NCBI GenBank assembly: GCA_016748015.1
Contig: JAAOMT010000420.1
Location: 226,602-290,601, forward strand
Origin: Geosiphon pyriformis uo1
Taxonomy: Eukaryota > Fungi > Glomeromycota
Reading direction: 5' to 3'
Length of the DNA: 64,000 nt
The notes under the pieces were generated by a model. That model searched no databases. It saw only the letters and a program-made list of their open reading frames with translations, and was not told the origin of the DNA. This document shows, in pieces, positions 1 through 53,983 of the stretch (positions are counted from its first letter, which is position 1; each line of letters starts with the position of its first letter). Made by a program: the position numbers and the translations under genes.

Positions 1-572
1 TCTATCCAGGCCTAAAGTCACTAACAGTTTACTGAAATTGGTAGCTAATCAATTTTAAAACGTTAGTTAAATTTTTGGAGATTTTCCAAGTGCAATATTT
101 AAAGAAATTGGTTTTTTGAATTATTTGATATTTTATTTCTTTTTGTGTGTGTAAGAATGGTTCTAAGTGATAAATCTAAAGTAAGATACATTTTCTTGAA
201 GAGAGAAGCTCTTCTTTTATACAACTTGTCATAACACTATTCTATGAACTCGAACTTTGCTATTTTCTACAATTTTGTTGAACTAAAGATACATTTTGGC
301 AAACTACAAGTTATTTCTGCAAACTATTAGATATTTTGGTGAACTATCAATTATTTCAGCAAATTTTTACAAATTTTGACAAACTTTTTGAATGTTATAT
401 AGTTTGGGGTATTGTATGATTGATCATTGCAATTAGGTTATTAGTTAAATGATAATTTTGGACATTTTGCTAATGTAATAAGTGATAATTTGAAACGATA
501 ATATATGCTAATTAATAATAGGAATAAAGATAATGTTATGCTAAATAATATCTCTAATTTCGTCTGGTAACA
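1..572 (-). repeat. 3' LTR of E1 (partial)
   Basis: Matches 8823-9420; minus strand starts TGTTACCAGACG right after the PPT. Confidence 0.95.
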
Positions 573-1260
573 TAACCTCCTCTTCAAGACTGAGCTCCAT
601 CAAAATCCAAGTACTGTCTGTAATTTCCAGATAATAATCCAAAATTATTGAAGAAATTTGGTCTGAAAATTGTTGAAATTTCAGTTCTATGAGCTTTTCA
701 ATGTATTGAATCTTCAAAGGTTGTAAAATTAGGTTTTGTAGGACATTTTCACAGGTGTGGAATAGATCATAAAGTCTAAGAGCAGCTCTAAGCTTGTAGT
801 GACTGTTTGTTGGTCCAGCTGTTGTCTTGAATTTGTTGTGGAGTTGTTTCTGAATAGCTTCTTTTGTGAGATTTGCTGTTGTAAGTTCCAGTTTTCATTT
901 GTAGAGTGTTTTTCCAATGTGGAAATATCTATAGATTGGAGGGTATTCAGTGCTTTTCTTATTGAGACACAGTTGAAGTCTTTATTGAATTGTAACATTT
1001 AGTGGAATACTAATTGAAGTGAGTATTAAGTTTTCTCTTAAAGCAAGCTTTAAAAGTTCTGGCAGATGAATTCCAGAATAATTTTTTGTGTTCTTCTTAT
1101 ACGAGTGATATTTTCATGCATTTGGGGCTAAATTTGTAACTACTTCTGTTTGGGTATAATTAATGTGGTTTCCAGTAACAGTAATGGATAATTCGGGTAT
1201 TGTTTTTAAAGCTAACTTTAATTTTTGGAATAATTGTTGAATGTTTTGAGGAATAATCAT
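541..1260 (-). pseudogene. Accessory ORF3 of E1 (post-integrase, stop codon inside 3' LTR)
   Basis: 720 nt, homologous to E3 31191-31910 (MIIPQNIQQL...EEEVMLPDEIRDII*). Confidence 0.85.
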
Positions 1261-9420: not shown

Positions 9421-10661
9421 TTGTATTAGAGTCAGCCCTTTAAACAACTTTTTGGCAGGTGTGGTTTGTATTTTTTCTGGGTGTGATTTGTCTTTGGGTG
9501 GCTTTCTGGCTGGTGTTTTTTGTCTTTGAAGTGGTACTCCTATGTCTCTAGTTCTCGGTGAGATGATTTTCTTCAAATGTGTCTCTTCTCTCAGGCATTA
9601 TGATATTGCCTTCATAGAACAGCTTTGTGACTGGAATGGCATTGTTTTTGATTGGGCAATTTTCAGGCATTGAAAAAGACTGGATTCCCCTGGCCCAGTC
9701 TTCTCCTGGTTTGATCTCTCTGTTCGTTTTATTGGTGGTATAGCTTTTCTTTCTGGTTGTTCTTCTCATGAAGGTGGTTGTGGCTCTTCTGACATTTGTT
9801 AGTCTCTTGGTTTTGGTGTTATTTGTAATGATTTGTTGAATGTTGGTGCCACCCACCTCTCTGTTTACACAGATGGATCACTAAGTAACTTGGACATTGT
9901 TGACATGTTGGCTTATGCTGCAGTTTTCTTTGAGGACATTAATTTGGGTCTGGGTGTGGGAGTTTCTGGTTTGGTTTCTTCTACTTTGATGGAGTTGCAG
10001 GCCATTGCTTTAGCTCTTGAGTGTGTTCCTTCTTTTTGTTTGGTTGACTTGTTCTTGGACAGCCGGCAGCTATAGATGCTTGCAGATTGGAGTCTTTATC
10101 AGTTGGCCCTGATTTCAGGAATTGTTGTTGGATTGAGCATCGTCACATCACCAATGTCATTTGTCGCAAAAATTTGGATGTTAATTGGATTAAGGTTGAG
10201 AGCCATTCAGGTGTTTTAGACAACAAATGTGCTGATGTGCTGGCTAAAGATGCTGCCCTTTCTGCCTGACACCTGCCCCACTTGGTCAGTGAGAGGTTTT
10301 TGAAGGCTGGTATTGATACGGTTTCTGGTAATTCAAGACATTTTGTTTGTGACGTATTCAGATCAATCTATTACACGTGTTGGAAGGTTGGTTCTGGTTC
10401 CCGGGTTGTTCTAGGTTGTTTGTGTGCTGATATTGACTGGCTGAAGTCTTTTTTGGTGTGACACCCGAATTCTCACATAGCAATTGGTTTTACTAGTATT
10501 TGGATAGCTGGCTTTCATACATATTTCATGAAAGCCCTTCATCATCATCTTTCTGTAGCTGTGCAAAAGTGTCTGTATGATAGAGGTTATCCCAATGTAG
10601 TTTGTTTGTTCTGTGGTGAGGTTGAAGTCTCAGATCATGTCTTTTCTTGCTCTTCTGACAC

Positions 10662-11734
10662 TGTTATGGGTAAACTTGGTGGGTATGGGAAATAGTAATG
10701 TTTGGTGCTCTCAATTATTGATGATGTGTTTTCTGTATAATTTTGTTGGCTATAGTCTTGATTATCAGTCTCTGAAAATCTATTCCTGGATGTGAATTTA
10801 TCTGTTGAGTTTTTTGGTTATAAGACACAGAGTTTGTCTTTTGTCAATTACAATATTTTTCGTAAATGTGAGCTTTCTTCTCCGAGTTAACGAGTGCAGT
10901 TGTTAGGGTCTGGCATTGTCTTTTTGCCCTTCTGGTAAGCTAACAAGATAATGTTAATATCCAAAACTTAAGGGGAGCTTCTCTTTTTTACCAGGCTATC
11001 ACGAAGTCTATTCTCAGACAGTTGATTTTACTATGTTGCTGCTCCACCAAAATAGACAGAAAAAGAAAAAAAAAGAAAAAAGAAAAGAAAAAGAAAGAGA
11101 GAAAAGATAAATTAGTATCGTCAATTGCCGTGATCAAGAGTGATTGGTCCAAATTGTTAATAGATTTGAGGCGGTTATGCTAAAAGCATCTGTCCTAGAA
11201 TGGAGGGACGAGACAAGAGTTAATTTATGTAAATTCCATGAAGTTCGAGAACATGAATTCATGATTCTGATTTCTTTTAATAATTGGTTTATTTCAGAAG
11301 ATGAAATAGAGAAGATAATAAAGGATGAAGGGGTATGGATATTTAATTCTTGTCTAGAGGTTTGTATCTATCTGTCTGTCTTTTCTCACTTCTACAACTA
11401 CTTGCTTTTATACATTCTTTTGGTTTTACAGGATTGCTTTCAATTGTCTTGCTATTACTAGCTATTGCTTTGTTGTTTCTGTTATTGTTTCATTTTTCTA
11501 TATTATCGCTAGTTATCCTATGTTATAACATATTATCTGATGTTATTACATGTTATTCTGTGTTATTCTGCATTATAACACATTATCCTACGTTATTGCG
11601 CACTATTCTGTGTTATAGCACATTATCCTACGTTATAATGTGTTATCCAATATTATTGCACATTATTTTGTGTTATGTTACATTTTGGTCATGTTTTTTC
11701 ATAACTTTGGATTGGTTTTTCAACTCGGGTAACA
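10662..11734. mobile_element. Solo LTR, family B (1073 bp)
   Basis: Termini TGTTA...TAACA; flanks ACAC (10658-61) / ACGC (11735-38) = 4-bp TSD with one CpG transition; removal restores the LINE frame. Confidence 0.85.
11511..11690. repeat. 10-bp-period tandem array (YRTTATNNYR, ~18 units) inside solo LTR B
   Basis: tgttataaca tattatctga tgttattaca tgttattctg tgttattctg cattataaca cattatccta cgttattgcg ... Confidence 0.9.
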
Positions 11735-11866
11735 ACGCTGATATTCGCGCTGATTTGTTGGACACTTATGCAGCTGTCTGAGAGGTGCATTCTGGTCTGT
11801 CTTGCTCTTTTTTGTGTGTATCACAGTTGTTGTTAACTTGCATTTCAGATGTAACTGTCAGTATGA

Positions 11867-20064: not shown

Positions 20065-20786
20065 ATGACTATTTCTTAAAACATTCAACAATTATCCCAA
20101 AAACTAATGTTAGCTTTAAAAACAATACCCAAATTATCTATTACTGTTACTGGAAACCACATTAATTATACCCAAACAGAAGTAGTTACAAATTTAGCCC
20201 CAAATTTACGAAAATATCACCCATATAAAAAGAACACAAGAAGTTATTCTGGAATTTACTTGCCAGAACTTTTAAAGCTTGCTTTAAGAGAAAACTTAAT
20301 ACTCACTCCTATTAGTATTTCACTAAATGCTACTATTCAACAAAAAACTTCAACTGTGTCTTAATGAAGAAAACTATGACTATACTCCAATATATAGATA
20401 TTTCTACATTAAAAAAACACTTCACAAACAAAAACAGAAGCTTATAGCAGCAAACCTCACAAAAAAAACTATTTGGAAACAACTCCACAACGAATTCAAG
20501 ACAACAGCTGGACCCTACAAACAGTCGTTATAAACTAAGAGCTGCTCTTAGACTTTATGACCTATTCCACATCTGTAAAAACGTACTACAAAACCCAATT
20601 TTTCAACCTTTGAAGATTCAATACATTGGAAAGCTCACAGAACTGAAATTTCAACAATTTTCAGACCAAATTTCTTTAATAATTTTGGATTATTATCTGG
20701 AAATAACAGACAGTACTTGGATTTCAATGGAGCTTAGTCTTGAGGAGAAAGTTATGTTACCAGATGAAATTAGAGATATTGTTTAG
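20065..20786 (+). pseudogene. Accessory ORF3 of E2
   Basis: Homologous to E3 ORF3, frameshifted; ends inside the 3' LTR. Confidence 0.85.
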
Positions 20787-21736: not shown

Positions 21737-23210
21737 ACGGCCCTGTGTAAAGGCTTTGTTTTTGGCGATTGGTATCACGAGTCTGTTTCTGTTTACAAAG
21801 ATTCTAAGGTGGCAGTGGTTAATGTTGTGAATTTTGTATGTGAGTTTTGTTTTGCATTTTGTGATAATATCTGGCTGGTCCGTGTAAAACACTGGGCTAT
21901 TATGAAGAAGAATAAGCTAATTCCACGTGATGGTTCCATTTCTGTCACTGTTTCTGGTTTTTCTACATGGCTTTCAGCTGGAGTGATTAGGTTGTTGGGT
22001 ATTGCTGATGCACTTGGCATCAGTTTTGGATATTGTAAGCATTATTTGTTTTATGCAGGTGTTGGTGACATAGCTTCTGTTTATATAAGTGCATAGTATT
22101 GTTCTGACTAGTCTGAGTGTTTGGTTATGTGTAGCAAAGACATGATTTGCACCTAATTTAGATCATTTGTATAATGTATAGCACTAGGTGGTGTTTGGAC
22201 TTCACTCATAAAACTTTAAAAAAAAATAAAAAAAAAATGTCTTACTTAAAAAATTATAGAACAATCTAGCTTTTAACTTAAAACTCTTCTTAATTAAGAG
22301 ATCTTATTAATGACAAACCTTAAAAGAAATAAAATTAAACTGTAAATAATAGTTAAAAATAGATTGCAAAATAGCTGAAACTAAATATAAAAACTATTTA
22401 TTCATGATAATTTTTTTTAAAATCATATTTGAAAAAAACTTGATGTCAAATCAAGTCTTGGCTAAACTAGACTTAGACATTTCATCAGTAAATAAAAAGA
22501 TTTTTAAATATATGTGCAGTATACCATTTTTGGCAATTAAAATAAGTAATTCACTAATGTTTAAAAAAACATTTTTAATTTTTTGGTTAATAAAAATAGC
22601 CACTGTTTTGTTATTGTTAATTAAAATATTATTAATCAAAAAAATTTACTGACAATATCTAATATATATTGTGTAAAAATCTAACTATTCTTAATTTAGA
22701 TAATATTATCAATAAAGACATCAGCTATAAAAAAAAAAGTCACTTTTTTTTTGGTTTTTACTTTTTCTGTTTTAGCCATAAATTTGGTATTAATTTGGTA
22801 TTTATATAAATGTTGTTGTCTTTTAATCTTATATAAAAAAAAGTCATAGAAGATTCTCCAAAGAAAAGAAGAGAATATCTTATAATAATCTAGTCTATTA
22901 TGTATTTAATATTTATTTATAAGACTAAAATCTATCATAATTCTATTTAATCTATTTTTATAAATACTGCTAAAAAAGCCAATAAATTTTTTACACATTG
23001 TTACCAGACAAATTTAGAGATATTATTTAGCATGAAATTATCTTATAATTTCTATCATTAATTAGCATATATTATCATTTCAAATGATCACTTATTACAT
23101 TAGCAAAAATGTCTGAAATTATCATTTAATTAATAACCCAAATTGTACACAACACAAATATAACCTAATTGCGATGATCAATCATGCAATACCCCGAACT
23201 ATGTAACATT

Positions 23211-23335
23211 CAAAAAGTTTGCCGAAATTTGTAGAAATTTGCCGAAATAATTGATAGTTCACTGAAATATCTAATAGTTCGCCGAAATAACTTATAGTTT
23301 GCCGAAATGTATCTTTAGTTTAGTGAAATTTTAGA
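23211..23335 (+). repeat. 20-bp-period array of palindromic TTCGCCGAAAT-type motifs in LTR U3 (~6 units; present in all family A LTRs)
   Basis: agttt gccgaaattt gtagaaattt gccgaaataa ttgatagttc actgaaatat ctaatagttc gccgaaataa cttatagttt gccgaaatgt. Confidence 0.85.
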
Positions 23336-23379
23336 AAATAGCAAAGTTCAAGTTCATAGAATAGTGTTATGACAAGTTG

Positions 23380-23386
23380 TATAAAA
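23380..23386 (+). promoter_or_regulatory. Putative LTR TATA box (TATAAAA); candidate poly(A) signal AATAAA at 23463-23468
   Basis: Conserved in most LTR copies (one transition in the E1 5' LTR), ~45 bp downstream of the U3 array. Confidence 0.55.
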
Positions 23387-23676
23387 GAAAAGCTTCTCTC
23401 TTTGAGAAAATGTATCTACTTTAGATTTATCTCTTAAAACCGTTCATATATACACAAAAAGAAATAAATATCAAATAATTCGAAAAACCAAATTCTTTAA
23501 TTATTGTACTTGGAAAATTCCCAAAACCCAACTAACATTTCGAAATTGATTAGCTACCAATTTCAGTAAACTGTTAGTGACTCCAGGCCTGGATAGAAAA
23601 TGTTCCCTTGATAAGATCCTATTTCTTTTACACTTCTGTTATTTTTCTTTCTTTTCTTATTACAATCATTAGGGTA

Positions 23677-23800
23677 GCCTACAGACGAGATTCCTGTAGA
23701 AGAGTTGACTTTCACAGCAAAGTAACTACACATTTTTAGTGAGCTTCCAGACGAGCAATTTCTGGAAAAGAGTTGACGTTTACTACAATGTAACTACATA
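23677..23800 (+). other. Tandemly duplicated two-hairpin RNA motif in LTR U5/leader
   Basis: Unit 1: CTACAG-acgagattc-CTGTAG aag AGTT-g-ACTTT-cacagc-AAAGT-AACT. Unit 2 consensus: TTCCAG-acgagcaattc-CTGG(G/A)A aag AGTT-g-ACGTT-tactac-AACGT-AACT. Compensatory stem changes between units. Confidence 0.7.
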
Positions 23801-23976
23801 AAGTAACTAGCAAGAAATTGGCCATTCTACTCATAAGCCCAGCAAATTCAAATTATAGGAGATAATTTGAAGATAAATTCAGTTACTGGAGGTTCAACCA
23901 CATCCAGAAAACGTGAATTCACAGCAAATAAGTATCAACAACATTACAGAAAAGAGACCAAAAACCTCCGGTAACA

Positions 23977-23994
23977 TTTGGTGCTCTCCCACGG
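23977..23994 (+). promoter_or_regulatory. Primer binding site (TT-TGGTGCTCTCCCACGG)
   Basis: TGG two nt after the LTR end, complementary to a tRNA ending ...GAGAGCACCA; tRNA identity not determined. Confidence 0.8.
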
Positions 23995-24021
23995 AAACAA
24001 CACAGCAAAAACAAATTCAAA

Positions 24022-27000
24022 GTGGCAACCACACCAGACGCAACAACTCTAGAGTATTACCAATCAATTTACACCCACTGCAAGCAAAGATTCAACATTC
24101 CAGACGGAATTGAAATTGTCAAGAAATCAGTATACCAATGCATTGAAAACCGCATCAACAATTATTTTTTTGGAAATTACAATATCTCAGAAGTTAGAAG
24201 CAACCTTTACAATAATTTAGCACACTATTCACAGTTGGGAACTGAAGACCTTAATAGTGAAACACTTGCCACTTACTTTCACGAAATTAATTATAACATT
24301 ATTAAATACTGTGAAGAAACATATCCAGTGCAGTCTCAATACACTATTGATTTTGAATCGGAAACAGAAACAAGCAACAAAGGCAAAAACAAATTAAAGC
24401 AATATTCAAGAACCACCCCAAATACTCCAACACTACCGAAAACAACTGCTAAACATTTACAAACACCTGAACAAGAAACCAGTTCAAAACTTCTACTTAC
24501 TATCACACCTTTTCCAGCCTCACTTGTATAAGCACAAACACCTAATTCACCCTTGAATCGATTTGCAAGACCAGAAGATTTTACATCACTCAGAAGTCTC
24601 ACCAGACAACAAGAACCCCCTCAAACTAGTTCTAATCTCCTTGATTTTCTAGCTGAAAATCAAAGTGAACACTCTGAGACAGCAGCAAACGAAGAAAACA
24701 ACTCTGAAATAACCGAAGAAGAATCAATAGACAGTGAAAACGAAGAAAACAAAATGACAACATACATCACAAAAATCCCTGAATTCAATGGAGAAGATAT
24801 TGAGACCAGTCCCCAAGAATGGCTTGACCAAGTTACTAAAGCTGGAGATGTAAATGGATGGAATGCTGCCAGAATGTTAAGAACAATTCTCTACTTTCTC
24901 AAAGGCATAGCAGAAGAATGGTTTGAAAACCTTGCCGCCCCATTCAATGATTGGAATGCTTTTAAAGCAGCCTTCCTTGAACAGTTCACCGACAATAATA
25001 CCTTTATTGCTCTTCACAATTGTTTTCGAAATATCAAACAAGAACCCTCCAAATCCATTATGACTTATATTGGAAAATTCAACAAACTTCTCAGACGGAT
25101 TTGCCAACTCGAGACAAATGATTATTATTCTGATGCTTAAATCTTGGATCAATTTATTGCTGGTCTGAAAGATAAACTAATTAAAAAGGTTCGCCCACAC
25201 ACGCCAGAAGATTTAAACTCTGCCATCCAGTATGCGAAAAGATACGAAATGGCCATGGAAGAGGCCAATTGTACAAAACTTGTAAATTTGGCAATTGGAG
25301 AAACCAGCTCAGCAGCTGAGGAAAAAATTGACCAACTCACAAAGAAGGTCGAAAACTATTTTACCAACCAACAACAACAACAACAATCCCAAAGATATCA
25401 ACCACTCCAAAAACGAAATCAAAATAATTTTGCACCACTTTCAAATAACCAGCCCCAGAATTACCATTACTGTGAAATCTCTGGCCACTGGAAAAGAGAT
25501 TGCAGAAAGCTACAGCGAGACCAACAAAACAGGGATAATCAACGTTACTCTCCACTACAGCAATCTTATTATCAACCATTACCACCAGCTTACTATCCAC
25601 CAAGACCCCAATACCAAAATAACTATTATCAGCCCGCCCCACAACCAATCCAACAGCAATACCAACAACCACCCACACAACATTATCAAGTACCTGCTCG
25701 AAGACTGATTACACAAAATCAATTCACACCACAAAACCGATACCAAGTAAACAACAATAGAATCAGTTCAAACAACCAATTAGTTCCCCAAAATACCACT
25801 CAACCAAGATCCAACCCTTATCACACTCAACCCAGTTATTTAACAATGCCAGAAGAACAGAATTTTCACCATACTGCACCCTTAGAAGGTAGAGCTGCAG
25901 CCCAACAACAATGAAACCCTTCTCATAACCACACCATTATTCCACCAGCCCAAATTGTTGAAAATGCCAATCTCTCTGATATCTTTCTTTTTGAATTTGA
26001 AGCAAATGAATCACCATTCTTACTTAGCAATACAGTGCTAATGAGCAAAAAGCCATCACTGCAATGTATGCAGAAGCTGAAGTAGAAGGAAAGCCAATTT
26101 GTTTGATCCTAAACAGTGGATCCGCCGGAAGCATTATTACCTACCAGTTAATGTAACAGTTGAAAAGAAATATCAACCGACCAGCTCAAACAGTAATTAT
26201 CACTGCCGATGGTATGAAAAAGACTCCAGTAGGAGAAATTGACAATTTTCCATTCACTCTTGATGGAATCACTATTCCAGTCAAAGTTCTTGTAATGGAT
26301 GCACTCCAGTACCAAGCCCTCATCAGAAATGATTGGCTTCAAAAAGCCAATGCTAATCTGAACTGGGAGACACAAGAGTTAACAATCTCTTACCAAGGAC
26401 AACACGCCTGGGTACTTGCCATTTGTGGTACATTCAACAAACGCTCTGAAAAAGCCCTGGCTTTTGAATTTGAACCAGAAGAAAAAAAACCAATAATTGA
26501 AACATTCATGGCTCTTGGATCAACGTTCAATTGGGCCGATGAAACAAAACAAGAACATTTTACACCACACACTAAACCCGAAACCTCTGGATGGAATATA
26601 TCTTACTCAAAACCTGAACCAAGAAAACAACGCCCCTATATTCCCCTTAAATGTAAGGACTGCCACAAGAAACTATCATCAATAGGAGCCTGCATTTCAC
26701 CTGAAGAAGAATATGAGAATCATACTTGTTATTACTGCAAGGCTTGTCACAGAGAGCAATGGGGCCATCTAATAAAAAGGAGCGGAAAATGGGACAACAC
26801 CTCTTGTTTGACTTGTGGAGATATGCTACCAGAAGAATGCAATTAGATTGATGTAGCAATGAGAGGAGGTGTCTGTGATCAAACCTGCCAATATGCTTTA
26901 TCAATTTCAGAAAAAGTAAAAAGAGGAACACCCTTTAATGCAGCATACAACAGTGCTCTCAACAAACTTTATCACTACTTTCATGATGCCGAGATGATTT

Positions 27001-29645
27001 TCGACTTAGCAATGGCTTTAATTAATGGAGCTACCAAAGAAGATGTTCGTCAAATAAAGGAAGTAGAATACATTAAATACACTATGGAATTAGCTGGATT
27101 TGATTACAAAGATGAAGTAGAAGTCTATCACCAAATTGCAAGTCACACCTACCCAACTCAAGAAGCTCAAATTCAACGATTAGAGCAAATGAACATTAGG
27201 CTATGTGAAGAATGCATTATGCCTTGTAATGAACAATGGTGTCCCAAATGCTATGCTCTTAGTATTCCCTTGCCCAGCGAAAATGATGAGAATGAAATTG
27301 AATTTGGAGAACCTGAAGAAATGGAAGAAATTGAAACAACACCCATCTACCTTATCAAAAATCAGCCTGCCTTACAACTTAAATACTTCAACAACAACAA
27401 ACAAGGAATAAAATCTGAAAAAGCACATGAAATTGATGTTGGATATGACTTAAGATATCCAGGCAAGAATACTCTTGTTCTCAAACCCAAATCTCTCACA
27501 AAAATCAACCTCAAAATTGCACTTGAAATCCCGCCAGAAGCAATGGTTCAAATCACCTCTCGGTCCTCTCTGGCAAGCAAAAGAATCAATGTCAGAGGAG
27601 GAATAATCGATGCTGGATATACTGGAGACATAACAGTGATGCTTCAAAATGAGACTGACAAACCATTCAAGATCGAACATGCTGAAAAAATTGCCCAAGC
27701 TATTTACCTACCCTTAATCAACATTTCGGGTTTGCAACTAGTCAATCAAAGAGAACATTTAGGAAAAAGTGATAGAGGAACTCAAGGTTTTGGTTCAACT
27801 GAATGATTCACAGTTCCAGTTAATATAGCTCTTAACACACAGAACAAATCCTACCAGATTCTCAGACTTCCACAACCGATTACCATCTCACTTTTTGGAG
27901 AACATCCAGAAATTTACACTTGTACAAAGCCAACAACCACACAACAAATTTTTGAGTCCAATGAACAAGTCTGCTTGGAACATAATATTTTGATCCCAAA
28001 CATTTATATTCCAGAAGGAACAAAGAAAGTCCGAGTTACTTTTTACAACCCCAATAATTACCCCATAATTTTATTAAATAATTTAGAAATTGGAGTTATT
28101 CACAGTAATATATTTCAACAAAAATTACCCCAAACAGTCCCCGATTTCCCTGAAATTATTGGACATTCACTACTGAAAATCAACCCAAACTCTAGCTCTG
28201 AAAACTACCATGTTGTTATGGAAAAACTATCTCAAATCAACATGGGACAACTTGAACTACAACAATAGACGCAGCTCAAAGAACTAATTGCAGAATTTGC
28301 TGATATCTTCGCCGAAAACAACAATGACTTAGGAAGAACTGATTTGGTTCAACACCAAATCTATACAGGAGATGCCAAACCCAGGTAACAACAAGCCTAC
28401 CAAGTTGCTCCAGAAAGTCACCAATTTATCCGAGAAGAAGTACAACGGATGCTTAACAATGGGCTTATTCAACCATCAATAAGCCCATGGGCCTCACCTG
28501 TGGTTCTAGTTAAAAAGAAAAATGGAAAGATACGATTTTGTGTTGATTACCGACAACTTAACAGTATCACCATTGGGGATGCCTACCCTCTTCCCCGAAT
28601 TGATAACATGTTGGATGCCCTTGGAAAGTCCAAATACTTTTCAACATTAGATTTAGAAAGTAGATACTGGCAAGTTGCTATGGATCCCAAAGACCGCTCC
28701 AAAACAGCATTCATCACTCAAGAAAGAAATTACGAGTTCAATGTAATGCCTTTTGGATTATGCAATGCACCAGCAACATTCCAAAGACTCATGGATGTTG
28801 TTTACAAAGGCCTCCTTTGGAAATCAGTAGTAGTTTATCTTGATGACACTGATGTTTATTCATCATCTTTTGAGCTACATTTAATTCACCTGCGAGAAGT
28901 TTTTCAATGATTACGGAAAGCAGGATTGAAATTGAACATTGAAAAATGCTACTTCGGAAAGACAAGTTTAGCTTTTCTTGGTCACATTGTTAGCAAAGAT
29001 GGAATTAAACCAGACCCCGGAAAAATCAGTACTGTCAAAAACTTCAAGACTCCATGAAATACCACAGAATTAAGAGGATTTATTGGATTAGCATTCTATT
29101 ACCGAAAATTCATCAAAGGATTCTCAGAAATTGCAAAACCTCTCAACCAGCTCACTATGAAAAATGTCGAATACAAATAGACAAAAGAACACCAAAATGC
29201 CTTCGAGATACTCAAGGAAAAACTCACAACAGTCCCAATCCTCGCCTACTCAGACTTCAGCAACCAATTCCGGTTAGCAACTGATGCTTCTTATACTGCC
29301 TTTGGTGTTATTCTATCACAGTTAGATAACAATGGAAATGAGCAAGTAATTGCTTATGCTAGTAGAACATTAAAACCAGCCGAAAAGAACTATTCTGCAA
29401 CAGAATTAGAAACTGCAGCAGTAATCTGGGCCCTACATCACTTCAACCTTTACCTCAGACCCAAAGAATTCGATATTATCACTGATAATATTGGACTTAA
29501 ATGGCTTCAAAACAAAAACATCCAGCTGAACGCAAAACAAACCCGATGGACAAGATTTTTAGCTAATTATCAATACATCGTACACCACAAACTAGGAAAA
29601 CTCCACACCAACGTTGATTGTCTCTCAAGGATGAGGCAAGATTAG
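24022..29645 (+). pseudogene. Gag-PR-Cys-rich-dUTPase-RT-RNaseH polyprotein of E3
   Basis: N-extension 24022-24753; capsid from MTTYITKIPEF; knuckle (C)HYCEISGHWKRDC; PR ILNSGSAG ~26100; Cys-rich ~26650-27270; dUTPase ~27370-27803; RT PWASPVVLV, MPFGLCNAPATFQ, YLDD; RNase H TDAS, YSATELE; few stops and frameshifts. Confidence 0.95.
27370..27803 (+). other. dUTPase domain within E3 polyprotein (also E2 ~16245-16675, E1 ~4655-5085)
   Basis: All five trimeric dUTPase motifs: D(A/V)GYDL, RSSLA, GIIDAGYTG, KIAQAI, RGTQGFGST(G). Confidence 0.95.
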
Positions 29646-29693
29646 AAACAAAACCAACACTCATTTGAATTAACAGCATCAAAACAACAAACA

Positions 29694-31079
29694 ATGAACC
29701 CTGAAAACTACAACAATCTCAAACAATATTTGGAGACATTAACAATCCCAACAGATTGGTTTTTAGACAAAAAACATTGATTACAATAACAAGCCAAACA
29801 ATATTTTCTACACAACAACATTATCTATCATCGAAATTTCAAAAACCCAACCAAATCACTCAGATTAATACAAGAACAGAAAAAAGAGACCATTTTATAC
29901 AACATGCACTCGGATCCTTTATCAGCACACTTCGGAAAAGATAGCACCACCCAAAGAACACTAGAATATTACTTTTGGCCTTGAATGAAAAAAAACATTC
30001 ATGAATATGTCGAATCTTGTGATAGTTGTCAAAGAAGAGGAAGAACTTGCCCTACAGAATCTTTAAATCCACTCAAAGTTGGACAGCCTTTTGACAGAGT
30101 TGGTATCGATTTAGTTGGACCACTATCTATCACCACTCAAGGAAACCATTATATTGCAGTAGCTGTAGACTATCTTACTAAATGGCCTGAAGCCAGAGCC
30201 ATTCAACGAGCAGATGCAAAATCAGTAGCAAATTTTATCTACGAAGACATCATTTGTAGACATGGATGTCCAATTGAACTTTTATCCGATCAGAGAACAC
30301 ACTTTGTGAACAACCTGATACAAGAAATTTGTGAACGATTCAATGTCAAAAAACCTCTGTCTTTGCCCTACCATCCACAAACAAACGGACTTGTGGAATG
30401 TTTTAACAGAACATTGTGTGAGTCATTAGCCAAAGTCTCAACTGATTTTGAGCAAGAATGGGATCTCTTTATTCTATCAGTGTTACTAGCATATAGGACA
30501 TTAAAACAAGATACCATAAAAAACACACCATTTGATTTAACTTATGGAAGGACGGCAACGTTACCAATTAGTTTTACAGTGGAAACATACCCAGTACAAC
30601 TGATCAATGAAAACAATTTCTAAGAAACACTTCAGTGAAGAGCCTACACTCTGCTTAGTACATTGGAAGGAAAACGACAAATAACAGCCACCCATATTGA
30701 ACACTCCCAAGCTCAACAAAAAGAACAGCATGATGACAAATTGCCTTCAGTCACCAATAAATTCAAAATTGGAAACAAAGTTCTCTTACACAGAACTAAA
30801 GCTGAAAAACAATGGAGTGGAAAATTTGAAAATAAATGAGATAAACCATTCTTTATCCATGAAGTCCTAGACAATGGATCATACAAGCTAAGACTTGATG
30901 ACAAAATCCTAGCAAAAGTTGCACATGGAGATCATTTGAAACACTATCATTCCAGAAACAATCCTGAACCATTAATTCCACAAATTGGTATACATTCTCC
31001 TTTGGTCAGTCCCGAAGATATTCCCTGAAACTTAGAACCAATAGTTGTTATTGAACAACCTTCCAACCTGAACACTTAA
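29694..31079 (+). pseudogene. Integrase ORF of E3 (separate from pol)
   Basis: HSDPLSAH...CDSCQ zinc finger, GIDLVGP, SDQ(G)THF, YHPQTNGLVE, GPF-like C-terminal module; no chromodomain seen. Confidence 0.94.
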
Positions 31080-31190
31080 TTTAATTTTACTAGTCATTCT
31101 CTTATAATTTAGAAACAATCTCACAAAAACAAAAACAACATAAAAACCCATACACCAAAAATAATTTTTATTTTTTTTCAATTGCTTATA

Positions 31191-31910
31191 ATGACTATTC
31201 CTCAAAACATTCAACAATTATCCCAAAAACTAATGTTAGCTTTAAAAACAATACCCAAATTATCTATTACTGTTACTGGAAACCACATTAATTATATCCA
31301 AACAGAAGTAGTTACAAATTTAGCCCCAAACTCACGAAAATAACACTCATATAAAAAGAACACAAGAAGTTATACTGGAATTCACCTGCCAGAACTTTTA
31401 AAGCTTGCTTTAAGAGAAAACCTAATGCTCACTCCAATTAGTATTCCACCAAATGCTACAATTCAACAAAAACTTCAACTGTGTCTTAATGAGAAAAACA
31501 CTGAATATCCTCCAATCTATAGATATTTTCACATTGGAAAAACACTCTACAAACAGAAACTGGAACTTACAACAGCAAACCTCACAAAAGAAGCTATTCA
31601 GAAACAACTCCACAATGAATTCAAGACAACAGCTGGATCAACAAACAGTCGCTACAGGCTTAGAGCCGCCCTTAAACTTTATGACCTATTCCACACCTGT
31701 GAAAACGTACTACAAAACCCAATTTTTCAACCTTTGAAGATTCAATACATTGGAAAGCTCACAGAACTGAAATTTCAACAATTTTCAGACCAAATTTCTT
31801 CAATAATTTTGGATTATTATCTGGAAATAACAGACAGTACTTGGACTTTGACGGAGCTCAGTCTTGAGGAGGAGGTTATGTTACCAGACGAATTTAGAGA
31901 TATTATTTAG
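31191..31910 (+). pseudogene. Accessory ORF3 of E3, 239 aa, unknown function
   Basis: ATG at 31191, one premature TAA (TAT in E1 and E2), frame runs across the PPT and ends 32 nt into the 3' LTR. Confidence 0.88.
31866..31875 (+). promoter_or_regulatory. Polypurine tract of E3
   Basis: GAGGAGGAGG, 3 nt before the 3' LTR. Confidence 0.8.
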
Positions 31911-32856
31911 CATGAAATTATCTTATAATTCCTATCATTAATTAGCATATATTATCATTTCAAATGATCACTTATTACATTAGCAAAAATGTCCGAAATT
32001 ATCATTTAATTAATAACCCAAATTGTACACAACACAAATGTAATCTAATTGTGATGATCAATCATGCAATACCCCAAACTATGTAACATTCAAAAAGTTT
32101 GCCAAAATTTGTAGAAATTTGCCAAAATAATTGATAGTTCACCAAAATATCTAATAGTTCGCTGAAATAACTTATAGTTTGCTGAAATGTATCTTTAGTT
32201 CAGCGAAATTTTAGAAAATAGCAAAGTTCAAGTTTATAGAATAGTGTTACGACAAGTTGTATAAAAGAAAAGCTTTTCTCTTCAAGAAAATGTATTTACT
32301 TTAGATTTATTTCTTAAAACCATTTATATACACACAAAAAGAAATAAATATCAAATAATTCGAAAAACCAAATTCTTTAATTATTGTACTTGGAAAATCC
32401 CCAAAACCCAATTAACATTTCGAAATTGATTAGCTACCAATTTCAGTAAACTGTTAGTGACTCCAAGCCTGGATAGAAAACGTTCCCTTGATAAGATCCT
32501 ATTTCTTTTACACTTCTGTTATTTTTCTTTCTTTTCTTATTACAATCATTAGGGTAGCCTACAGACGAGATTCCTGTAGAAGAGTTGACTTTCACAGCAA
32601 AATAACTACACATTTATAGTAAGCTTCCAGACAAGCAATTCCTGGGAAAGAGTTGACGTTTACTACAACATAACTACATAAAGTAACTGGCAAGGAATTG
32701 GCCATTCCACTCATAAGCCCAGCAAATTCAAATTATAGGAGATAATTTGAAGATAAATTCAGTTACTGGAGGTTCAACCACATCCAGAAAACGTGAATTC
32801 ACAGCAAATAAGTATCAACAACATTACAGAAAAGAAACCAAAAACCTCTGGTAACA
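31879..32856 (+). repeat. 3' LTR of E3
   Basis: TGTTACCAGA...TCTGGTAACA followed by TSD ACAT. Confidence 0.97.
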
Positions 32857-35518
32857 ACATTTTAATATATTGCAAACTAGCTTTTAAATAATGCCAACTA
32901 ATTAAGTTATATGTTTTACACATGTCTTATAAAACCAACCAAATTTTTTTGTTCTTTTCAAGACATTTTCAACCATTGAACTAATAGCAAAAATAGAAAA
33001 CTGTATTGAAATGTCTTTTAAAACAGAAAAGTTGTTTTCATAAAAAACACCAAATTTACTACAAACAAGAAAAATTTGATCTAAGAGAATCTTAAAAAAA
33101 ATTTTCTTAGTTATTTCAATCAAAGTAATAGGTTAAATATTTATTAAAATTTTATTCTATTTATAAAATTTAAGTATTATTAAAACCTATGCTCTTCTTT
33201 ACAAAGTTAAAATCATATTCAAGATTAAACATGAATTTAAAAAATCCAAAAAACACTTAACAATATTATTGTTACAATGTTTTCACAATTTATTAGAGAT
33301 ATTACACAAACCAGCAGCTTTTCCATTCAACAAATTTTTGACTACTTAAACCAATTTTTCAAAACCAATAACATTTATAACATTTAAAAATACACTATTA
33401 TTTACATAGTTTAAAAAAACATATTAACTAGTTCAGAATTCAGATAAAAGTCTGAAAATTACTTATTTTTTGGTTCAATTTTTTATAATTATATTAATTT
33501 TAGATTTAACATTATCAAATTCCAAAAATATTTTATTATTAATAATTAAATAATTTAATACTATTGTTATAAGTTGGAATAACAAACTAACGGATAGCAA
33601 GAGAGAACAGGATTGTAGGATGATGGAAATAATCAAAAAGAATTCAACTTCAAAGAGCAAATTGAATGAATATGAATTTAATGTGCAAGATCAGTCTCAT
33701 AAAATATCTTAGTCACTATTCTTTTTAAAGGTAACTAGTGTTACCAAGTAAAAGCTATGGATTTGTAACTTCTTAGCAATGACAATAGCTTTCACCTAGA
33801 ACACACACATTACCATGATTATGCTACTGACTATAGCATATCATGGGTGTATGGACTATTTCAGTGAATAGGAGAGCAGAAAGGAGTACGTGATAAGGTC
33901 ATTAAAAGTGAAAGAAAGTATTGTTATTATTATTTGTTTTTGGGCAAGAACCAGTCTTAGATATTTTAAAGGGAAAAGAGAAATCACATTTCTTTATATG
34001 TATCAGAAGTGCAACCAGCAACAAGGAATAAAACCAACTACTCAAAGAAATACATAACCAAAATTCTTTTAATTAGTTGTCGAAAGGGTGTGGTGTTCAA
34101 ATGCCCACTTTGAAAACAAAGTTATAGGAATTATAAAAGAAATTATAAAAGTCAAACATAACTGAAATAGATTTTGCTTAAACTTTTTATTGTTGAGACC
34201 ACTCTTTAACAATGTGATACTTTATTATTTATTTTTATATTTAACAACTTGTTTGGTAAAACAAGACTTAATATGAAATGGTGATAACACATGATTTAAA
34301 AGATTGGAAGTAATAGAACAACTTGAAATGGTGATAACAAGTAAGTAAAAGATTATAAACAACATGATTCTAAATGGTGATAAGGAATATGGGAAGACAT
34401 ACTTGAGATTGTGATAACAAGTATTTAGAGCATAGAAAGGGGAAAAAGAATGTAAAGAGTAGAAGAGAGGACTAACTGCTCACTATAAAACTATAGCAAA
34501 GAGTTGGCTCAGTATTGAACTGATACTTTTCTGAGCTGACAGAGGGGCTGTATATATAACTAAATTACATCAAATTTACATACTATATTATAACTATTTA
34601 AAATACATCAATTATTTATATATATTTAATTAATCAATTTATGATGAGCTTACTTAGCCTGTTATTTATCCAAGAGCTAGTAATTTAGATAATCAGATTT
34701 TAGATGGCTGGATCTAGAACATTGATTGTAAATCAATGATATCAATTGTGATTATGATCAACATAATCAGAAGTAGATCAATTAATTACATTTTTTGATA
34801 ACTACTTTTAACCATTGATCGCAAATCTGAAATGTTAGATTGTTCTAATAAGGGCGTATGAGAATTTTGGAGCATAACAAAACCTGTTGTTATCTGATTA
34901 CATGCATCAATCATTTATTTCCATTGGTGTTTCTTAGTTTGTCAAGATTTCTTTATATCCAACTTAGTTAAACTGTTGGATTGTGCCATATTTCTTTGTT
35001 GTAATTAGATTGATTACTGATCATTTATTTCCAGATTGCCAGCTGATTTTGTTAATTAAGTGTGATGATATAGATCTTTTTCGCATGATTTTGATGTTAA
35101 TTTTCATTGTATGTGTTGTAATTTTTGCATTGAAAAGTGTGAAAATCTTCTGGTAATACTGGAGAATCTGAAGGTAGAGGGATAGTCCATATTGTCAACA
35201 ATTGATCACCACTGGTATAATTCTATGCCTCATGTCAGTGCTCTTAGAATTCAATATCAGGTATCAACTTGTGCTTTTCAGTTATGTTTATTCAAATAAT
35301 CTTCAAATGCTACAATTATATACATCAGGAAAAGACCAACAAGTAATCTTTTATCTTTAAGATGTTCAAATACTTAAAAGTAGGGAAAAAGAATTTTAGC
35401 AATCAGAGAAAAATTGAGATGAAAGTTGTTATTTTATTTATTCTTGATTAATCAGATGCTTGTTATTACATACTTTTTTACAGCTAAGAGACTCATCACT
35501 TATATAGCTATTGAAAGT

Positions 35519-36615
35519 GGTCAATGATCAGGTCAATAATTAGGTCAATGATCAGGTCAATGGTCAGGTCATTGATCAGATCAATGATCAGGTTAACGGT
35601 GTTACCAGACGAAATTAGAGATATCATTTAGCATAAAACTATCTTATAATTCCTATCATTAATTAGCATATATTATCGTTTCAAATTATCACTTATTATA
35701 TTAGCAAAGAATGTTCGAAATTATCATTTAATTAATAACTCAAATTGTACACAACACAAATGTAACCTAATTGCAATGATCAATTATGCAATACCCCGAA
35801 CTATGTAACATTCAAAAGTTTGCCGAAATTTATAGAAATTTGCCAAAATAATTGATAGTTCACCGAAATATCTAATAGTTCACAGAAATAACTTGTAGTT
35901 TGCTGAAATGTATCTTTAGTTCAGCGAAATTGTAGAAAATAGCAAAGTTCAAGTTCATAGAATAGTGTTATGACAAGTTGTATAAAAGAAGAGCTTCTCT
36001 CTTCGAGAAAATGTATCTTACTTTAGATTTATCTCTTAAAACCGTTCCTATACACACAAAAAGAAATAAATATCAAATAATTCAAAAAACCAAATTCTTT
36101 AATTATTGTACTTGGAAAAACCCCCAAAAACCCAACTAACATTTCGAAATTGATTAGCTACCAATTTCAGTAAACTGTTAGTGACTCCAGGTCTGGATAG
36201 AAAAACGTTCTCTTGATAAAAATCTTATTTCTTTTATATTTCTTTTATTTTCTTTTCTTTTCTTATTACAATCATTAGGGTAGCCTACAGACGAGATTTT
36301 TGTAGAAGAGTTGACTTTCACAGCAAAGTAACTACACATTTTTAGTGAGCTTCCAAACGAGCAATTCCTGGAAAAGAGTTAATATTTACTACAACGTAAC
36401 TACATAAAGCAACTGGCACAGAATTGGCCATTCTACTCATAAGCCCAGCAAGTTCAAATTATAGGAGATAATTTGAAGTTAAAAATTCAGTTACTGGAGG
36501 TTCAACCACATCCAGAAAACGTGAATTCACAGCAAATAAATATCAACAACATTACAGAAAAGAAACCAAAAACTTCTGGTAACAACGGTCAGGTTATTGA
36601 TCAGATTAATGATCA
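35519..36615. repeat. 12-bp tandem array (GGTCAATGATCA) split by the solo LTR
   Basis: About 7 units at 35519-35599, continuing at 36585-36615. Confidence 0.85.
35600..36584 (+). mobile_element. Solo LTR, family A
   Basis: 985 bp, TGTTACCAGA...TCTGGTAACA, perfect TSD ACGG, no PBS or PPT. Confidence 0.97.
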
Positions 36616-52401: not shown

Positions 52402-53983
52402 TTACATATCAAACAAAGGCACATGTTTGGAAGGTTTCTTTTTTCTGTGTGGCCATTGAAGAACAGGTATCGCTGCGGTTGATTGACAAGCTTGCCACGC
52501 ATCGTAGAATTTGAGTTTACTAAATGCTGCGTCATCATAAAGATGACGATTGATACCTCGAATACTGAGCTTACGAAGCCGTGGATGTTTATTATGTAGG
52601 ATTTCAAAAAATTCAGGGTCAATTTTTCTTCCATCATCGATTGAAAGTCTATCCCATGAAGGACATCCAATAGGTCTTTTAACTAAAGCGAGCCATCCTT
52701 CTCGTGTGACATTTTGCAATCTATCGCATATGTTAAATTTTACGAGAGTTTCCATGGAACCAAGCATCCCAAGACCTTTATCGGTAATTGTGGGTGTTTT
52801 CACAAGCTCAATGTGTTTAATACGTGAGTTATTTACGATATTGCAAACAGCCTCATCGTTGAATTCGCCATATTCTCCAATTTGAAGATACTAAAATTTT
52901 TTAAGCCCTTTTTGATGAGTACTAATTAACTTTAGTTCTAAAATGAAAAATCATATGAATACAAACCTCAAGATTTGGCAGCATATTCAAGAATTTGAAA
53001 TCACAGATGCCATCAATCTTTAATATTGAGAGGTTTTTTAGACTATCCATCCTTTGAAAGTGTTTCAAATCCTCACCATTGATAGTGGAGGACAGGTAAA
53101 CTCGGTTTAAGGAAGTGGATAATGGAAGAGCACAGGCCGCATCACTTGCTACCGGTAGATCCAAATGAGTCAGCTTGGAAGCAGCTTGAATGAGTTCTTC
53201 CAAAGCCAATTTAGATACCGGGGTACAGTTGAATGCAGCCATATCGAATGATCGTAGATTGGTGCAGTGTTTGGCAAATGATCTTGCAATAAGGGAGGGG
53301 TTGAGATCTGCACAAAGACTTCCATTGATTGTAATCCGAATCCCTTCTAGAGAAGTGCCGGCACTTGAGGCTAGAGTTTCCCATAAAGGATTAGGAATTT
53401 TGGGATAGTAGAGCATTATGTTTCGAAGTTTATTCTCTTGAGCAATTTTACAAAAAGCGTCTTCATTATCATCACAAACTTCCTCATCTAACCATTGATT
53501 CATCAATTGACGCAAACCAGTAGCAGCGGGTTGCACATTGGGATGCTCATAAAACACGGTGTATAAATCTTTTAGTCTATCTGCAAGCAATGTCAAGGGC
53601 AATTTCCATATTTTCCTAGGGTGCGGCTTGGAGGAAAATCTCAGGGTAAGTTCATGAAGATTTGGACACGATTCTGCTAGAAATCTGATCATTGCAGAGT
53701 CGATGCAGATTGCAGGATCATTATCAAGTTCGTTGAGTTGCAAGATTCTAACATATTCACCATATGGATGCAAAGCTTTTGCAGTAGTCGAACGTTGTAT
53801 AGTAGTTTTGAACTGATTATATTCGACTCCTTTAAAAAGACGACGAACTCTCCACAAATTGGGTAAAGCTAAAGATCCCCATCGACGGCAAGTTAAAGCT
53901 AAGTTTAAAAGGTCTTTATTTCCGAAGCCGGCGACCTCCAAGATATACAACAAGAGCTCCCGTGGAAGTTCCAATAGGAACAT
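52402..53983 (-). CDS. F-box / leucine-rich-repeat protein (2 exons)
   Basis: LLELPRELLLYILE...LALTCRRW...ALPNLW F-box; CPNLHELTL and CTNLRSFDM LRRs; intron ~52891-52963. Confidence 0.85.

Follow-up and report, generated by a model that had tools for sequence, protein, structure and literature searches.

Organization of the retrotransposon copies

The window, which is the whole stretch of 64,000 nucleotides of Geosiphon pyriformis DNA that was analysed, contains three decayed copies of one Ty3/gypsy LTR retrotransposon and one solo LTR (Table 1). The assignment to Ty3/gypsy is based on a gag gene followed by the order PR-RT-RNase H-integrase, with integrase as an ORF of its own, and on the TG...CA LTRs, the PBS, the PPT and the target duplication (ACAT in copy 3). 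Neither a tRNA gene within the window nor an Rfam match across 22900-33000 was found.

Table 1. Features of the retrotransposon copies in the window (positions refer to the window)
Feature	Position	Strand	Remarks
Element copy 3	22999-32856	+	LTR pair and 4-bp target duplication ACAT on both sides
5' LTR, copy 3	22999..23976	+	978 bp, TGTTACC...GGTAACA; 95.7% identity to 3' LTR
Primer-binding site	23977..23994	+	TGG... immediately 3' of LTR
gag, capsid and nucleocapsid region	24754..25914	+	one internal stop; Pfam Retrotrans_gag E 6.6e-12
pol frame	26039..29645	+	protease-like region, Cys-rich module, dUTPase, RT, RNase H; start approximate
Integrase, separate ORF with own ATG	29694..31029	+	Pfam rve E 2.2e-11; end approximate
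ORF3, copy 3	31191..31910	+	239 codons, TAA at codon 51
ORF3 basic linker, position of R/K/H-x2-5-PY	31335..31358	+	PY in copy 2; SY in copies 1 and 3
ORF3 helical core (predicted)	31518..31800	+	YxYFxIG helix, helix-GxTN-helix (invariant Asn, Arg), G-K-L/I-T segment; end approximate
Cis motif GGAGCTCARTCTT, polypurine tract and LTR start	31853..31885	+	translated as ELSLEEEVMLP
3' LTR, copy 3	31879..32856	+	paired with 5' LTR at 22999..23976
U3 array of six TTCG-N-CGAA palindrome sites	32098..32207	+	20-bp period
ORF3, copy 1	541..1260	-	three internal stops
ORF3, copy 2	20065..20786	+	one stop and two 1-nt insertions
Solo LTR, same family	35600..36584	+	target duplication ACGG on both sides

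The gag frame of copy 3 reaches back to the PBS and is interrupted by one stop. This N-terminal extension (23980-24753) comprises about 258 gag-frame codons upstream of the capsid Met, begins at the PBS without an ATG, and contains one stop each in copy 3 and copy 2. The pol frame, in which dUTPase (Pfam E 2.2e-21) and RVT_1 (E 2.4e-27) are clearly recognized, has several decay stops and ends with TAG at 29643-29645. Between protease and dUTPase it encodes a Cys-rich module with CxxC repeats (26630-27260), for which Pfam revealed nothing above the cut-off. Pol is split at 29643-29696, where the RNase H stop is followed by an A/C-rich spacer and the integrase ATG. The spacer measures 48 nt in copy 3; in copies 1 and 2 its length is 46 nt, out of frame.

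The flanks of copy 2 differ from each other (ATGA at 11863-11866 versus ACGG at 21737-21740), which suggests recombination between copies. Between copy 3 and copies 1/2 the pS is 0.41 in RT (28449-29645) versus 0.13-0.15 in ORF3 (31191-31910), which suggests that 3' ends were exchanged between subfamilies. Just 5' of copy 2 lies an AT-rich tandem array with periods of 10, 20 and 40 bp (11498-11676), and a decayed fragment with a YTDGS motif (9803-10072) resembles what we take to be the RNase H of another retroelement. A host F-box protein is encoded at 52922-53983 on the minus strand (Pfam F-box-like E 1.2e-8).

The differences within the LTR pairs are nearly all transitions (41 of 42 in copy 3, 67 of 67 and 37 of 38 in the other pairs), and the observed/expected ratio of CpG is 0.41 in the element versus 0.92 in the host DNA. 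Both observations point to decay driven by methylation. For AM fungi it is described that small RNAs and DNA methylation act on transposons (PMC8647823).

The ORF3 frame in the window

A first reading of this DNA, made from the sequence only, had described an ORF of 239 codons for each of the three copies. The frame is indeed present, with its ATG at 31191 and a TAG at 31908-31910 in copy 3, and the same frame is found at 541-1260 (-) and 20065-20786 (+), but no copy is intact and stops or frameshifts occur in every one of them. Because of the TAA at codon 51, the longest open ATG frame of copy 3 is only 31425-31910 (161 aa).

The breaks are located at different codons in the three copies. A database search revealed 205 ORF3 matches among 512 candidates. 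All 120 matches listed are named Geosiphon pyriformis, the best one with about 90% identity, and among these 120 are 23 unbroken proteins of 239 aa. The differing positions of the breaks together with the 23 unbroken proteins among the matches listed indicate that the ancestral frame was open. A few hundred gene models for a 'hypothetical protein' are hereby explained as one transposon gene.

The raw dN/dS between the window copies (0.38-0.42) was rejected as evidence for selection because the values of wrong-frame controls (0.34-0.82) overlap it. In a spectrum-aware test 35 synonymous differences were counted for the ORF3 copies of the window versus 28.2 expected (z 0.4-1.1 per copy), which is compatible with neutral decay. 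The same test indicates strong selection on the copy 3 branch in RT (z 8.5) and neutral decay for RT-RH of copies 1 and 2 (z 0.8-1.2). The selection test within the window is without power for ORF3, and the evidence for a gene is provided by the distant relatives.

Distant relatives of ORF3

A profile search of 1.84 billion proteins for distant relatives resulted in 35 matches, which include two metagenome proteins and two more Geosiphon families. The ORF3 relatives fall into six lineages with pairwise identities of 19-34%, except for one pair with 69%; the ORF3 tree, whose branches are long, served solely to confirm these groups. The metagenome contig L001 exhibits the same order of RT-RNaseH, separate integrase, ORF3, PPT and LTR, and its pol is likewise split (L001 772-801), with a spacer of about 24 nt. 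The L001 ORF3 is intact, comprises 230 codons and is 30% identical to the window protein. A frame of this length is more than expected by chance, as none of 2000 base shuffles was open.

In the body of ORF3 the identity between window and L001 is 0.39, 0.59 and 0.38 at codon positions 1, 2 and 3, and of 61 identical residues, 36 are encoded by another codon, a pattern of second positions and recoding which is favoured by the protein-guided alignment that was used. Gene models in which ORF3 is fused with an integrase C-terminus are known from three lineages, and in 22 of 23 of them the integrase piece lies upstream of ORF3. The earlier proposal of a third, accessory gene which takes the place of env without being Env is supported, and almost certainly ORF3 was a functional gene in the ancestral element.

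The sequence-only reading had also pointed to a large family of Glomeromycota hypothetical proteins. A wider Mucoromycota family is indeed suggested by an Atlas search with the L001 core, in which two Mucoromycota hypothetical clusters rank on top (feature score 0.94; 177 and 175 of 256 features), a lead without an alignment. The full-length genome protein remained under the recognition mark of Atlas. The viral contigs contained neither ORF3 nor the junction motif nor a close integrase relative, the PHROGs gave no named family better than E 0.028, and the search of sequencing runs gave no RNA run among those listed. A published description of ORF3 was not found in the literature covered, which lies mostly outside subscription papers, supplements and Repbase/Dfam entries.

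Predicted structure and comparison with protein families

The earlier observation that ORF3 is devoid of a transmembrane segment was confirmed. For the window protein the highest Kyte-Doolittle average over 19 residues is 0.85, and representatives of the six lineages reach 0.44-1.29; ORF3 is therefore not an Env protein. Its pI varies from 6.6 to 9.8 across the lineages, and the protein is not uniformly basic.

For the L001 homolog AlphaFold, based on an alignment of 31 sequences, gave a model with a mean pLDDT of 78 and a pTM of 0.64. The predicted architecture consists of an N-terminal alpha-beta-beta module, a flexible linker (residues 40-51, pLDDT under 50) and a compact helical core (pLDDT 85-95). 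The model of the window family, which is built on a shallow alignment, is poor (pLDDT 42), and a homodimer prediction in which the alignment was not used scored 0.01. With the L001-homolog model no Foldseek match in PDB or BFVD reached E <= 0.001, and VIA-align revealed no Z >= 5 among 48,161 chains nor among 992 re-aligned chains; these fold searches barely probed the N-terminal module, and the lack of a match is no proof of a new fold. In a sequence search of the PDB the best E was 0.55.

A relationship to DUF1016_N, suspected on the basis of the helical pattern, was not borne out. Pfam leaves a faint trace (E 0.03-0.06), for which 13.9 bits at E 0.058 compare with a gathering cut-off of 32.8 bits (PF17761), and at the family level 1 of 31 members is assigned at E 0.12. 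The profile-profile comparison resulted in a probability of 0.5% and a score of 15.0, while the reversed control scored 15.1 and 60 block shuffles up to 18.3. The template consisted of 71 YhcG N-termini (Neff 3.7), remaining from 81 loci of which 5 were partial and 5 were filtered out by length. For the equally suspected DUF3102 none of the 31 members is listed by Pfam at E <= 1. By the same approach no profile similarity to the HTH of ParB/KorB was found either (score 14.0 at a probability of 0.4%, with up to 16.6 in the shuffles; template of 26 rows, 2 of them mistranslated). As a positive control, DUF1016_N versus ParB was detected with the same set-up (42%, E 2.6e-4).

In the structural comparison Spo0J (Z 4.0, rmsd 5.4, 92 aligned), KorB (Z 3.3, rmsd 5.2, 96 aligned) and ParB (Z 3.0, rmsd 3.1, 59 aligned) recur together with Raf1 at Z 3.0-4.0, tied with unrelated helical chains; the rows of Spo0J, KorB and Raf1 span the whole ORF3 core. 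In these weak rows the helices of the ORF3 core follow a similar order (Spo0J 104-201, KorB 139-236; model 78-207), and a look-alike G-x-T/S-helix-R-L pattern resembles that of the ParB, KorB and Spo0J HTH and of DUF1016_N. In contrast, the Z scores reach only 3.0-4.0 at an rmsd of 3-5, and the profile scores are at the level of shuffles.

Conserved residues

In each of the six lineages the basic linker carries an R/K/H-x2-5-PY motif. Among the sequences covering the site, PY is present in 51 of 75, 25 of 47, 7 of 15, 2 of 2, 1 of 1 and 2 of 2 per lineage, and the strict R/K/H-x2-5-PY form in 50, 16, 7, 2, 1 and 2. Nearly all losses of PY lead to S, L or F, which is what C-to-T changes of the Pro codon would give, and PY is missing from two of the three window copies.

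The PY-NLS of karyopherin-beta2/Kap104 cargo is described as a basic, disordered stretch of at least 30 residues with R/K/H-x2-5-PY, and the signal of yeast Hrp1 ends with RNNGYHPY (PMC2408616). The site of the window family reads RKYHPY. With a net charge of +3 to +6 the ORF3 linker has the basic character of such signals; its low-confidence part comprises 12 residues (40-51 in P0148) versus the 30 of a PY-NLS, and other lineages have a longer linker. The conserved motif of the PY-NLS type lends support to the suspected nuclear role, and judged by this motif the ORF3 protein is probably imported into the nucleus.

In the helical core N145 and R155 (P0148 numbering) are identical in all six lineages. 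K131, G142 and T144 are found in five of six, and position 149 is basic in all six. The conserved Lys, Asn and Arg residues around the Gly turn suggest that the helix-GxTN-helix is a candidate nucleic-acid-binding face.

The 3' end of ORF3 and the U3 repeats

As stated in the earlier reading, ORF3 codes through the PPT GAGGAGGAG (EEE) and the LTR start TGTTACC at 31879, and stops 32 nt inside the LTR. This stop lies in U3, because it is well upstream of TATAAA (LTR position 382) and AATAAA (465). The only ORF3 DNA which can be aligned between window and L001 is a stretch of 39 nt at this junction with 87% identity, and the GGAGCTCARTYTT motif just 5' of the PPT is kept as DNA in distant elements (window 31853-31885; L001 3091-3123). 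In the junction tail the third-position identity is 0.83, as high as that of first positions, and 2 of 9 identical residues are recoded. Since third positions are conserved like first ones, the shared ELSLEEExMLP is what results when a cis motif is translated together with the PPT and the end of the LTR.

In lineage 3, 18 of 48 models end with ...FAGAQF, and the remaining 30 end differently or are chimeric there. The L001 junction reads FAGAQS-stop in another frame, which makes a stop ahead of the PPT most likely for lineage 3.

Lentiviral nef is the last ORF of its genome and passes through the PPT into U3. ORF3 is likewise the last ORF and crosses the PPT into U3. Unlike nef, its overlap comprises about 5-15 codons, whose conservation at the protein level does not go beyond the DNA motif, and its N-terminus is not Met-Gly. 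The description of ORF3 as nef-like is not supported, because the overlap reflects a constraint at the DNA level and appears to be absent in one lineage. The run of ORF3 into U3 is incidental, and the comparison with nef is one of position only.

The U3 region contains an array of six sites with a 20-bp period upstream of TATAAA, which is seen in all LTRs (23218-23327 and 32098-32207 in copy 3). The variants of these sites can all be derived from TTCG-N-CGAA by CpG decay and differ between the LTRs. Each of six LTRs has 4-6 palindrome sites versus a null mean of 0.36, and at least 4 sites were reached in 1 of 2000 null cases, a null which was applied to a motif picked after inspection. The L001 LTR carries other repeats, the best 9-mer occurring 7 times versus 2-3 times for the best in the null (15 resamples). 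A shared TTYGCC core is not significant in L001, where its 5 matches were reached by 12 of 200 shuffles. The targets of VANC are described as repeated motifs which differ between related elements (PMC5735166). Non-coding repeats differing between relatives are also found here, as judged from the two lineages compared. Repeats in U3 are common in LTRs and could equally serve host transcription factors.

Possible functions of ORF3

We consider ORF3 to be a putative nuclear LTR-binding activator or anti-silencing factor and assign a probability of roughly 40% to this reading. ORF3 would be expressed from a subgenomic RNA whose end lies in the 3' LTR, and its protein would be imported by Kap104/transportin through the PY motif and bind nucleic acid via the helix-GxTN-helix face. 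The repeated U3 motifs of the element's own LTR are the candidate target, and bound ORF3 would keep the element on, or switch it on, in spite of host methylation. Against this reading, ORF3 is without homology to any known DNA-binding family, and the nuclear signal suits the rival roles equally. A more far-reaching version, which we regard as rather speculative, would be an env-less retrotransposon lineage of early-diverging fungi resembling complex retroviruses, with four separately started genes of which the last encodes a nuclear protein of an undescribed helical fold that recognises the CpG palindromes of its own LTR, co-evolves with them and counters host DNA methylation in a sequence-specific way.

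The split of pol makes two other roles plausible, both of which we judge to be unlikely. ORF3 could be a nuclear-import or targeting cofactor for integration, which carries integrase or cDNA into nuclei or tethers them to chromatin. Such a role would suit the split integrase in the three window copies and L001, the conserved motif of the PY-NLS type, and the position of ORF3 behind integrase in every lineage for which the context was seen. However, the C-terminal integrase pieces are about 50-65% identical where the ORF3 proteins are about 25% identical, which means that ORF3 evolves far more rapidly than the partner proposed for it.

The other role, of about the same low probability, would be exerted on the RNA of the element, by export or protection, by suppression of RNAi, or by re-initiation at integrase like caulimovirus TAV/P6. 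It is favoured by the arrangement of several cistrons with a short A/C-rich spacer ahead of integrase, by the analogy to TAV, for which re-initiation is described to be joined with silencing suppression (PMC5902531), and by the small RNAs reported to act on transposons in AM fungi (PMC8647823). The look-alikes listed by Atlas also include the coat protein of a closterovirus (0.93) and a translation repressor of a phage (0.91), but these rows share 158 and 124 of 256 features, which is in the range of chance. Furthermore, Foldseek on viral structures found nothing at E <= 0.001, and Pfam detected no RNA-binding domain.

That ORF3 is a captured fragment of a host or foreign gene which hardly serves the element, if at all, would agree with its broken state and the neutral differences in the window; it is nevertheless very improbable, since pol of copies 1 and 2 shows the same neutral decay, frame, length, motif, fold and position are kept at 19-34% identity, and no host-type family is among the matches. 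Multinucleate hyphae in the host group and the env position of ORF3 might speak for an Env substitute or a movement protein between nuclei or cells, which is likewise very improbable, since no lineage has a hydrophobic segment and a motif of the nuclear-import type is found instead.

Comparison with known systems

The functions of the extra ORFs of LTR retrotransposons are mostly unknown. Among Ty3/gypsy elements such ORFs are described for fungi, where an 'add. ORF' and dUTPase-bearing elements occur (PMC2864245), for the aORFs of plant Athila and Tekay elements, which have a predicted NLS (PMC11728184), and for rotifers with their ORF3 types (PMC5408684). Both the extra ORFs and a dUTPase between PR and RT in fungi are known (also PMC6431247). 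The element analysed here agrees with these in a sense ORF3 outside of gag-pol, between pol and the 3' LTR, and in a dUTPase between PR and RT, and the predicted nuclear signal is shared with some of the plant aORFs. In contrast, ORF3 has no match in Pfam, PHROG or PDB, integrase is a separate ORF, and a signal of the PY type is conserved at about 25% identity.

VANC of the Arabidopsis VANDAL elements (PMC5735166) is comparable as an accessory protein encoded by the element, in combination with short non-coding repeats specific for relatives and a methylating host. VANDALs are, however, plant DNA transposons, no sequence link was found, and binding and demethylation by ORF3 are only putative. 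With Tas of foamy viruses (PMC7828637) and other retroviral 3' transactivators, ORF3 shares the small gene before the 3' LTR and a possible action on U3, whereas its element lacks env and resides in a fungal host, and no homology to them was found.

LTR elements are reported to make up 41.2% of the G. pyriformis genome (PMC11952901). New in this analysis are the PY motif of six lineages, the conserved helix-GxTN-helix residues and the array of CpG palindromes in U3. ORF3 offers a defined family, a confident model, an import motif that can be mutated, a set of named conserved positions and a DNA sequence as candidate target, which makes the question of a self-encoded activator or anti-silencing factor directly testable.
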